Made by a program: the position numbers and the translations under genes | Source of the DNA: Promethearchaeota archaeon | Lineage (GTDB): Archaea; Asgardarchaeota; Lokiarchaeia; Sigyniarchaeales; SOKP01 | Direction: 5' to 3' | Assembly (NCBI GenBank): GCA_008080735.1 | Contig: SHMW01000102.1 | Span: 1 to 12,801, forward strand | Length of the DNA: 12,801 nucleotides | Shown here: positions 9,129 through 11,457 of the stretch, one piece after another | Layout: each line of letters begins with the position of its first letter | Numbering within the stretch: the first letter of the stretch is position 1 | Notes under the pieces: model-generated | The model's database searches: none | What the model was told of the DNA's origin: nothing | The model's input: only the letters and a program-made list of their open reading frames with translations

Positions 9129-9530
9129 TTATTTAATAATTTCCTTAAATTCTTGAATTATTTTTAATGTGTCTTCTTGAAAATGTTTTAAATAGCTAAA
9201 GATCTTTTCAGAATCGATTTTAATATACTGGTGCACCAAAAAATTTCTCAACTTCTTAAATTCCATGATCAGATCATAGTTTTTGAGTTTTGGTTTTAAT
9301 AGTTCAAGAATTGAATCTTCGGATGTGGGAGGGCCTAAATTAAAAAATTTTACCAGTTGAGTACAAATTTGAATTACCGCTTCGATAATATTTTGTATTT
9401 TTCGCTCGATAGCGGCCTGAAGTTTTAAATCTCCAAGGAATTCTTCTTTGTTTCCCGGCGACCATTCTTCTAATAAATTCAATTGATTTTCAATAAAAGC
9501 AATTCTTTGAAGAATCCGTTCATAAGCCAC
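9129..9530 (-). CDS. HepT-like (DUF86) HEPN ribonuclease toxin
   Basis: AAIERKIQNIIEAVIQIC and the catalytic RNFLVHQY (RX4HXY) motif. Probable start is GTG 9530, overlapping the upstream MNT gene by 11 nt; the ORF track start is 9557. Confidence 0.88.
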   Translation of the reverse strand: MAYERILQRIAFIENQLNLLEEWSPGNKEEFLGDLKLQAAIERKIQNIIEAVIQICTQLVKFFNLGPPTSEDSILELLKPKLKNYDLIMEFKKLRNFLVHQYIKIDSEKIFSYLKHFQEDTLKIIQEFKEIIK

Positions 9531-9900
9531 TTTTGACCGACTCCAAATATAATTCATAATATGGGCGGAATGATTCCCATTCCTTTATGATCTCGATGAA
9601 AATATCAAAAATTTGAGAGTAGTCCTTGTAAAATAGAATTTCCCCTTTGATCGCCTCTTTCGCGATAATGATGGGCATATCGGTTAGGAAATGCAGATCA
9701 AACTTTTCTGGGAATTGTAAAAGATATTTTAAAGATTTGAGATTTGAGGTAGGCATTCTAACTATGCCAAGATCGATATCATTATAAGTGTCAGATTTAA
9801 GAGCGCTCCCATATAAAATGGCAGCTAGAATATCTTTATCTTGTTTTAGTTTCTTAATTATTTTCCACAAACTTTTTTTATCATTATCTGAAAGATGCAT
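9520..9900 (-). CDS. Minimal nucleotidyltransferase (MntA-like antitoxin)
   Basis: ILYGSALKSDTYNDIDL (GS...DxD) motif; overlaps the HepT gene. Start is ATG 9900 or TTG 9912. Confidence 0.88.
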   Translation of the reverse strand: MHLSDNDKKSLWKIIKKLKQDKDILAAILYGSALKSDTYNDIDLGIVRMPTSNLKSLKYLLQFPEKFDLHFLTDMPIIIAKEAIKGEILFYKDYSQIFDIFIEIIKEWESFRPYYELYLESVKSGL

Positions 9901-10159
9901 AGAAACTCTCAAACAAATTTTTTACATATATTAATATAAAAAACACTCTTAAAATTTCAATACTTAATATCAGTATTAACTTAAACTGATATATATAATC
10001 ATAAAATGCTCTTATATTTTATATTTAAAGGATTTCTAATAATGCTTAGATTTATAATTTTTTACTAAGAGCCGTAAGAAAGTAAACCTATAGTTAAATT
10101 AATATTTTAATCGGTAATATTAAGCAATAAAAAATATTTAGAAAAAAAATACTTGAAGA

Positions 10160-10357
10160 GTGGTTTCAATTTCAAAAAATAGGTTAAAGATTGGGAATAA
10201 AAAGATAGTCTTGATACTTTTAATCCTTGCTGCAATCGCATCTGTTATTTCCATTGCTATATTTATTGTTTTAAATCAACTTGACAATGGAGAACCCTCA
10301 GGGTGAGCATGTATAACCTTCCTAATTTCTTTATATTTTGAAATAATGCTAATCTAA
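10160..10357 (+). CDS. Candidate novel small membrane selenoprotein, 65 aa, Sec49 (TGA 10304-10306), UxC motif
   Basis: GTG 10160 gives MVSISKNRLKIGNKK-IVLILLILAAIASVISIAIFIVL-NQLDNGEPSG-U-ACITFLISLYFEIMLI-TAA(10355-10357). A SECIS homologous to the vhuU one has its core 21 nt after the TAA. The start codon is uncertain. Confidence 0.7.
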
Positions 10358-10369
10358 AAAATAATTCAA

Positions 10370-10434
10370 TCCAATAGGATGAGTCTTATGGAAAAATGAT
10401 AGCCATAAGAGGACTGCCTTGCGAAGGTTTTGGA
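10370..10434 (+). promoter_or_regulatory. Eukaryote-like SECIS element no. 2
   Basis: ATGA 10379-10382; perfect stem TCTTATGG 10384-10391 / CCATAAGA 10403-10410; 11-nt loop AAAAATGATAG; GA 10412-10413; side hairpin GCCTT-GCG-AAGGT 10416-10428; outer helix TCCAA 10370-10374 / TTGGA 10430-10434. Aligns without gaps to SECIS no. 1. Confidence 0.85.
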
Positions 10435-10651: not shown

Positions 10652-11036
10652 ATGGATCGAACTAAAGATTGGTTAGAGCAAGGAAAATCAGATTTAAAAG
10701 CTGCAAATCATCTTTTAGATACAAATGATTTTTCTTGGTCTTGCTTTTTAGCGCAACAAACTGCGGAAAAGGCATTACAAGCATTGGGGGAAAACATAAA
10801 TATTTTTTTATGGGGCCATGATTTGGTGGATCTAATAGAAGAGTTAGAAAAAAAGATAAAAATTCCGGAAAAAATCTTAGATAATAGCAAAACTCTAAAT
10901 TTGTATTATATACACAAGATATCCCGATGCGTTTACAAGTGGGCATCCTTCTGAAAAATTTTCTGAGCAGCAAGCTATAGATGCAATAAATTTAGCAAAG
11001 GATATATTGGAATATGTACAAGAAAAAATTAAATAA
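10652..11036 (+). pseudogene. HEPN-domain protein (COG2250-like), frameshifted at about 10913
   Basis: WLEQGKSDL...CFLAQQTAEKAL...GHDL...LNLYYI in the first frame. The conserved continuation TRYPDAFTSGHPSEKFSEQQAIDAINLAKDILEYVQEKIK* resumes at 10914 in the next frame and ends at TAA 11034-11036. Confidence 0.85.
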
Positions 11037-11457
11037 AATAACAGAACTCTTGAAAAATCATCTCAAAAGGGACAAATTAATAGAATTTTTGAAAAAATTT
11101 TATTCAAAATATCAAGCTGAATTCATAATTCTTTTTGGATCAAGCGCTAAAGGGTATTTCAATTATAGAAGTGATATCGATTTGTTAATTGTGAGTGATT
11201 CTATAGAAGGGGATTACTTTGAAAAATTAAGAAAAATGTATGATATTTCATCGGATGGGATTGACTTTTTTGTATATAATATAGATAAATTTGATGAAAT
11301 GGTCAAGGAATTCCATCCAATTACTTTAGAGGCACTATATAACGGAATTTTATTATATGATAAGGGTATGGGAAAAAAATATAAAAAACGAGTTAAAAAA
11401 TTGTTAGAAAATGATACTATTCGAAGATCTAAAAATTCATGGACAATAAATAACTAG
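11014..11457 (+). CDS. Minimal nucleotidyltransferase (MNT) domain protein
   Basis: ILFGSSAKGYFNYRSDIDLLIV motif; overlaps the restored HEPN C-terminus by 23 nt. Confidence 0.9.
   Translation: MYKKKLNKITELLKNHLKRDKLIEFLKKFYSKYQAEFIILFGSSAKGYFNYRSDIDLLIVSDSIEGDYFEKLRKMYDISSDGIDFFVYNIDKFDEMVKEFHPITLEALYNGILLYDKGMGKKYKKRVKKLLENDTIRRSKNSWTINN

Follow-up and report, generated by a model that had tools for sequence, protein, structure and literature searches.

The small ORF described here raises a simple question, namely whether an in-frame TGA that follows a single predicted membrane helix ends a 48-residue peptide or is read as selenocysteine (Sec) within a somewhat longer protein. The ORF lies in the window (the whole stretch of DNA that was analysed, 12,801 nt, which is the entire 12.8-kb contig C102) of a metagenome-assembled genome (MAG) of ~4.1–4.15 Mb that has 33.6% GC and is 93% complete. 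The relatives of its PAN ATPase gene are Promethearchaeota MAGs, which assigns the genome to this group of Asgard, Lokiarchaeia-type archaea. A preliminary description of this DNA had read the ORF as a membrane selenoprotein with its own SECIS element, and the analysis supports that reading through a conserved TGA, a covarying SECIS, a Cys codon 3′ of the TGA and the absence, in the papers and collections covered, of any catalogued family to which the protein could be assigned. In our judgement the locus is very probably a genuine gene with its own transcription, whose product is a single-pass membrane selenoprotein of 65 residues with Sec specified by UGA-49.

The gene occupies positions 10160–10357 on the forward strand, with a GTG start at 10160, 65 codons including the one UGA (Sec) and a TAA stop at 10355–10357. 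The 5′ limit of amino-acid conservation with the homologue from another genome of the same genus (G006) coincides with GTG 10160, and the ORF matches the family profile with an E value of 2e-15. The N-terminus is basic, with five Lys or Arg residues and no Asp or Glu among the first 20, and leads into a transmembrane (TM) helix at residues ~14–41 (10199–10282, forward strand), which has a hydropathy peak of 3.19 and is predicted by AF2 as a helix over residues 14–41 with pLDDT 74–90. A polar loop then ends in G-E-P-S-G directly before the in-frame UGA of codon 49 (10304–10306, forward strand), and the next two codons, GCA-TGT, give Ala and Cys51 (10310–10312, forward strand), the putative partner of Sec in a U-x-C motif. 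The 16-residue C-terminal tail (10307–10354, forward strand), which would be translated only upon recoding of the UGA, is modelled by AF2 as a helix at residues 51–64 with pLDDT ~58. When run on an alignment of 21 sequences AF2 returned a helix-loop-helix only, with a mean pLDDT of 67.7 and low confidence around the Sec. This layout, from basic N-terminus to TAA, is the one given in the preliminary description, whose coordinates proved exact. It had also seen a second hydrophobic segment after the TGA; the tail is indeed hydrophobic in the window (mean KD 2.18), but tail hydropathy in relatives runs from polar to hydrophobic (−0.43 to 2.2), so that no second span of the membrane is conserved. 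By the positive-inside rule the topology is predicted to be N-in/C-out, with the Sec outside.

A block upstream of the gene with a TATA-like TTTATAAT (10043–10073, forward strand) is near-identical in G006 and may be the promoter; the upstream flank is also common to G006 further out (86.7% identity at −300 to −121). A TTTTTAA(A/G) box 50–60 nt upstream is seen in other genera, together with purine-rich SD-like motifs. The presence of a TATA-like box at this distance and a purine-rich SD-like motif in most members suggests a stand-alone transcription unit, i.e. that the small ORF is transcribed on its own account.

The element behind the ORF is of the lokiSECIS (Asgard type I eSECIS-like) class. 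In the published definition a lokiSECIS lies near the stop codon and consists of AUGA, a 9-bp stem and GA, rarely AA, after the stem, with an apical loop of 11 nt in which the first five positions are mostly A and the last is an ultraconserved G that usually follows an A (PMC4989117). The core in the window (10379–10413, forward strand) has all of these features: ATGA at 10379–10382, a 9-position stem (10383–10391 paired with 10403–10411), an A-rich 11-nt loop ending in AG (AAAAAUGAUAG, 10392–10402) and GA at 10412–10413. The stem strands, GUCUUAUGG and CCAUAAGAG, form eight Watson–Crick pairs plus a G.G pair beside the core. The element begins 24 nt past the TAA stop, and the distance from TGA to ATGA is 75 nt; this spacing and the 83 nt at vhuU had both been given correctly beforehand. 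Directly 3′ of the core is a side hairpin, CCUU-GCG-AAGG (10417–10427, forward strand), and complementary flanks (UCCAA/UUGGA, 10370–10374 with 10430–10434, spanning 10370–10434 on the forward strand), as read from the sequence, would form an outer (lower) stem that closes a three-way junction around core and side hairpin. Analogous complementary flanks occur at vhuU and in the relatives, with a register that varies. The core is predicted to be of the kink-turn type and to direct Sec insertion.

In an alignment of 28 SECIS sequences AUGA and GA are invariant. Pairing in the 9-position stem extends to ~91.4–92.5% of cells, each of the nine pairs shows double-sided changes, and the covariation score was reached by none of 500 shuffles; controls with a slid register were 39–46% paired. 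For the side hairpin 88% of cells are paired and two of the three pairs covary. Of the strict SECIS pattern the 4.1-Mb genome has seven instances (behind two HdrA–VhuD pairs, one PrxL gene, vhuU, the window ORF and two more ORFs that are small or orphan), and each of six genomes simulated with a first-order Markov model has none. A covariance model (R1) built from the elements of 20 relatives, with the window's genome excluded, found the window element as its best match in the whole genome (71.7 bits, E = 8e-12). The six significant matches (E < 1e-4) were this element, three at HdrA–VhuD, one at PrxL and one zinc-ribbon orphan, all of them behind UGA-containing ORFs, and the remaining listed matches all had E > ~3 in the 4.1-Mb genome. 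With filters off R1 also recovered, at 34.7 bits, the SECIS of the window's vhuU gene. A 16-base motif covering the 3′ GA and the side hairpin has just two occurrences in the genome, one after vhuU and one after the window ORF, and the side hairpin is found behind vhuU, PrxL and VhuD of this genome as well as in the elements of the family. The window hairpin is thus of the same RNA class as the SECIS elements of known selenoprotein genes. No SECIS family was matched when the window was scanned with Rfam at E ≤ 10, the Loki type being outside the coverage of those models.

Some further observations were made on the other elements of this genome. The vhuU gene in the window follows hdrC (121–639) and hdrB (642–1529), starts with ATG at 1600 and has its Sec TGA at 1666 within the motif D-C-U-L-S-C; its SECIS lies at 1749–1783 (ATGA at 1749), so placed that the vhuU stop codon TGA (1750–1752) is the TGA within the AUGA core. 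This element has GA after the stem, where AA has been reported for Loki VhuU, and it shares the side hairpin and the outer stem with the element of the small ORF. On contig C10 (~34960–35180, minus strand; L129:2445–2700) an orphan lokiSECIS that scores 54.8 bits with R1 stands behind a zinc-ribbon ORF of ~39 codons (CxxC...C-P-L-U, with a second TGA near the end) that adjoins two PrxL selenoprotein genes with SECIS elements of their own. On contig C7 (~24714–25250, minus strand; L132) a strict-pattern element with the loop AUAAAUCUUAG, not reported by R1, is situated ~150 nt after an ORF of ~135 codons that reads ...L-D-P-G-C-U-U-E-K... across two adjacent TGAs; this could be a further selenoprotein outside the catalogues, or else a double stop, TGA-TGA, followed by a hairpin that arose by chance.

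As regards the machinery for Sec insertion, the genome contains SepSecS (E = 1.8e-116) and SelB (243.9 bits, above the cut-off), and its known Sec genes include HdrA–VhuD, PrxL and vhuU. No tRNA-Sec was found by ARAGORN or with Rfam RF01852 in this 93%-complete MAG; a candidate on contig C15 was rejected as an intron-containing tRNA-Ser.

Homologues were sought by a six-frame search of relatives followed by a profile search; a related-locus search with the window protein alone as query gave no match. The homologue in G006 is 53–55% identical (two aligners) and has the same length, TGA position and stop; between the window and G006 the SECIS region is 90% identical and the coding sequence 69–78%. 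The gene and its SECIS were found as a pair at 30 of 30 loci, each from a different species-level genome, and the architecture is common to all 30: a basic N-terminus, one TM segment, an N...GGG loop, the TGA at the aligned column and a tail of 14–33 residues, with a lokiSECIS lying 57–117 nt past the TGA and 4–46 nt past the stop. Among 400 genomes of the phylum the profile matched, at E ≤ 1e-4, 70 of the 134 belonging to the GTDB family of the window (by genus 43 of 54, 23 of 42, 2 of 6 with the window's genome excluded, and 2 of 10), and elsewhere in the phylum it gave only four weak matches, none with TGA at the Sec column. The family is restricted to one archaeal family-level clade; closed MAGs are available for its two large genera, and the four single-contig genomes that the order has outside this GTDB family gave no match. 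In every match that spans the Sec column the codon there is TGA, about 60 profile matches being scored as having one TGA and none as having only TAA or TAG.

The residues around the Sec were also compared across the 30 loci. U-x-C (x being A, G, P, Q, V or L), with Cys at +2, was found in 23, C-G-U, with Cys at −2, in four, and no nearby Cys in three, so that the UxC site put forward in the preliminary description holds for most members but is reversed or reduced to Sec alone in the rest. The swapped C-G-U pairs were aligned onto the same two columns as U-x-C, which places Cys on the Sec column. The interchange of U-x-C and C-x-U points to the two residues working as a pair; the lack of a nearby Cys in three of the 30 members means that a Se–S dyad cannot be the universal mechanism.

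Several members show peculiarities of their own. At six loci of one genus (L133, L134, L135, L138, L141 and L146) a second TGA ends the ORF only 6 nt upstream of the SECIS AUGA; the two UGAs are 51 nt apart and the first would be recoded while the second presumably terminates. In G069 (L159) a second TGA comes directly after U-P-C, three codons past the first. The homologue in G003 (L021/L152), from the genus of the window, keeps the TGA, the A-C, the tail and the SECIS but lacks a canonical start in its frame, for the conserved GTG is shifted by one base, and there is a TAG two codons upstream of the aligned region. The missing start could be due to a frameshift, an assembly error or the use of a non-canonical start.

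The neighbourhood of the gene was compared in the same way. In the window it lies between two divergent HEPN/MNT (DUF86/nucleotidyltransferase-type) pairs, at 9129–9912 and 10652–11457, and such flanks are particular to this genus. In one of the other genera an 8-TM protein and, frequently, MFS transporters are nearby and in another TrmB and an FGGY kinase; no neighbour that might indicate a pathway is conserved across genera, recurrence being seen within genera only. As the flanks differ between genera, the island setting does not characterise the family as a whole. The 8-TM protein (~378 residues, ~8 TM segments, no Pfam family) is encoded directly upstream on the same strand at 12 loci of one genus (L137, L142, L143, L145, L147–L149, L156, L158–L160 and L162). 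It is a possible partner of the selenoprotein and did not turn up in the window's genus; a 258-residue membrane protein encoded in the window is unrelated to it. The downstream HEPN gene (10652–11032) departs from the HEPN C-terminal motif, which we take to be Y-Y-I-P-T-R-Y-P, shortly before its stop at 10954, and the frame then runs on through two TGAs. The gene probably belongs to a toxin–antitoxin system and has decayed or undergone a frameshift; it has no link to the SECIS.

If the gene is read as we propose, the ribosome would decode UGA-49 as Sec under the direction of the eukaryote-like SECIS in the 3′UTR, and one N-in/C-out helix would anchor the product in the membrane. With the N-terminus predicted to be cytoplasmic from the positive-inside rule, the Sec/Cys pair would come to lie a few residues outside the membrane, where a flexible Gly/Pro-rich linker would set it at the outer surface, followed by a short, variable and mostly amphipathic tail. 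CxC and CxU redox motifs are well known from other proteins, among them the CPC of Mia40, the CGC mimics of PDI and the C-G-U of Sep15/Selenof. Members of the present family likewise have two chalcogen residues one residue apart (U-P-C, U-G-C and C-G-U), whereas the known motifs are held in folded thioredoxin-like or helical CHCH domains and this one would sit in a flexible loop beside a membrane anchor. Because of this resemblance, which is one of analogy, we tentatively favour, at somewhat less than even confidence, a minimal membrane-tethered selenol/thiol redox centre that would cycle through a selenenylsulfide and have thiols, disulfides or (poly)sulfide outside the cytoplasm as its substrates. 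A selenenylsulfide couple would be the simplest chemistry for the pair, with chelation of soft metals as the main alternative.

This alternative keeps the gene as a genuine selenoprotein and takes the Sec and Cys as a ligand site for soft metals or metalloids (Hg, Cu(I), Cd or As) on the outer face of the membrane, the role being capture, hand-over or sensing instead of redox catalysis. A selenolate and a thiolate two residues apart chelate well and would do so equally in the C-x-U order, and the 8-TM protein directly upstream at the 12 loci, with MFS transporters nearby, would fit such a role. On the other hand, the family is not accompanied across genera by any conserved gene known for metal resistance or transport, the Sec stands alone in three of the 30 members and neither Pfam nor NCBIfam gave a match to an HMA or Mer-type family. 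We consider the metal-site reading unlikely, while giving it real weight.

A second alternative denies recoding altogether: the TGA would be a true stop, the product a 48-residue membrane peptide and the hairpin a kink-turn RNA with some other role, in protein binding, mRNA stability or termination. Public gene calls do end at the TGA. An HMM search of 1.84 billion representative sequences gave 34 clusters, most of them 44–54 residues long and ending exactly before the TGA, and NCBI labels the fragments of 44–48 residues ‘hypothetical protein’. Five of the 34 clusters have W at the Sec position, the caller having used code 4; these were rejected as Trp homologues since they are code-4 gene calls, one of them letter-for-letter the same as a TGA locus. 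The test of the open frame is uninformative in this respect, the frame after the TGA being no longer than the +2 frame, which runs into downstream genes. Nor are the substitution rates uniform: dN/dS of the tail is 0.58 relative to G006 and 0.06–0.6 in several pairs but ~1 or above in several close pairs, all on very small counts (before the TGA it is 0.12–0.8). Against a true stop, the substitutions in the tail at codon positions 1, 2 and 3 numbered 58, 36 and 70 in ten taxon-disjoint pairs (chi-square P = 0.004), a coding-like distribution, and nine of the ten pairs had no indels in the tail, so that by these measures the frame does continue as coding sequence past the TGA. A stop would moreover have to be TGA in all ~60 orthologues, whereas the real stops of the 30 loci are mostly TAA (20, with 8 TGA and 2 TAG), a Cys codon two positions past a stop would not be conserved, and the hairpin is of the class found behind VhuD, PrxL and VhuU. 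The strongest single argument that the tail is translated is the conserved Cys codon 3′ of the TGA combined with the exclusive use of TGA. We regard the true-stop reading as very improbable.

It might also be supposed that a membrane microprotein with Cys at this position has recently been broken by a TGT- or TGC-to-TGA nonsense mutation and that the hairpin is there by chance. A candidate Cys form is present in an environmental contig: P0031 has 79 residues, no TGA and no SECIS downstream, its C-V-C aligns on U-x-C with an hhalign probability of 95.7%, and it is the only Cys homologue found and likely the Cys form of the family. A recent mutation is hardly credible, however, when four genera and ~70 genomes have kept the TGA and it is accompanied in every case by a covarying SECIS whose strict pattern is not expected by chance. 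Equally negligible is the notion that the SECIS serves another gene such as the downstream HEPN gene, as a 5′-UTR SECIS of which one archaeal case is documented (PMC4989117), for while the HEPN frame does extend across two TGAs upon read-through, in 30 genomes it is always the small ORF that precedes the SECIS and the neighbours are TrmB, ARMT1-like, MFS or hydrolase genes.

With a membrane selenoprotein as the favoured reading, it was of interest whether the family had been recorded before. The 2016 study of Loki began its search from SECIS elements and described no additional family (PMC4989117). A survey of 2024, which covered more than 400 Asgard genomes, gathered representatives of families reported earlier and searched for Sec/TGA pairs, arriving at seven families: SelD, FrhA/VhuU, HdrA, FrhD/VhuD, PrxL, AhpF-N-like and DsbA-like (PMC11227280). 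A 2026 review gives the same list of seven. The present family is absent from these 2016, 2024 and 2026 selenoproteome papers and from further full-text literature available without subscription. No Pfam or NCBIfam family reaches its cut-off for the small ORF and its relatives, and by the same two collections there is no homology to the seven published Asgard families, in agreement with the earlier statement that the protein belonged to no recognised family. The family is, as far as its sequences allow it to be judged, a new selenoprotein family served by a known recoding system.

Among known systems the gene resembles the Lokiarchaeal VhuU/FrhA, HdrA–VhuD/FrhD and PrxL genes in having a 3′UTR element of the form AUGA-9-11-9-GA with an A-rich loop ending in AG and a side hairpin, whereas the products of those genes are soluble redox enzymes or subunits and this one is a predicted membrane-anchored microprotein of 65 residues with no recognisable fold. 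The zinc-ribbon microprotein of the same genome is likewise encoded by a tiny UGA-containing ORF with its own lokiSECIS that gene callers miss, but it is soluble with a C-terminal Sec and differs in sequence and architecture. Among eukaryotic proteins SelK and SelS are similarly short, with one TM helix and a Sec after a Gly/Pro-rich flexible stretch, and in SelS the Sec pairs with a Cys as a selenenylsulfide. The likeness had been called architectural only, and so it is: there is no sequence or profile similarity (for none of the 21 members did Pfam give SelK or Selenoprotein S as a match at E ≤ 1), the present family occurs in one archaeal family only, and its Sec lies 16 residues from the C-terminus (14–33 in the relatives) rather than in the penultimate or antepenultimate position. 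The predicted topology is also the opposite, the Sec being extracytoplasmic by the positive-inside rule whereas that of SelK and SelS faces the cytosol.

These features raise the possibility, which we put forward as a doubtful one, of a new class of fold-less, membrane-tethered selenium microproteins that would present a single selenol (usually with a Cys) at the cell surface of one Lokiarchaeial family for extracellular redox or sulfur exchange, e.g. with syntrophic partners. In that case the protein would be the first membrane-anchored selenoprotein of the archaea and an independent counterpart of the eukaryotic SelK/SelS design, decoded by means of the eukaryote-like SECIS. The Asgard selenoproteomes published so far rest mainly on homology to selenoproteins already known, and their seven families are all soluble redox proteins; the present gene indicates that lineage-specific Sec-only microproteins do exist behind eukaryote-like SECIS elements and that gene callers systematically truncate them. 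The family would enlarge the substrate set of the Asgard Sec-insertion system. It also adds dozens of SECIS sequences that covary and have a third arm in common, and these are useful in defining what the SECIS-binding factor recognises.
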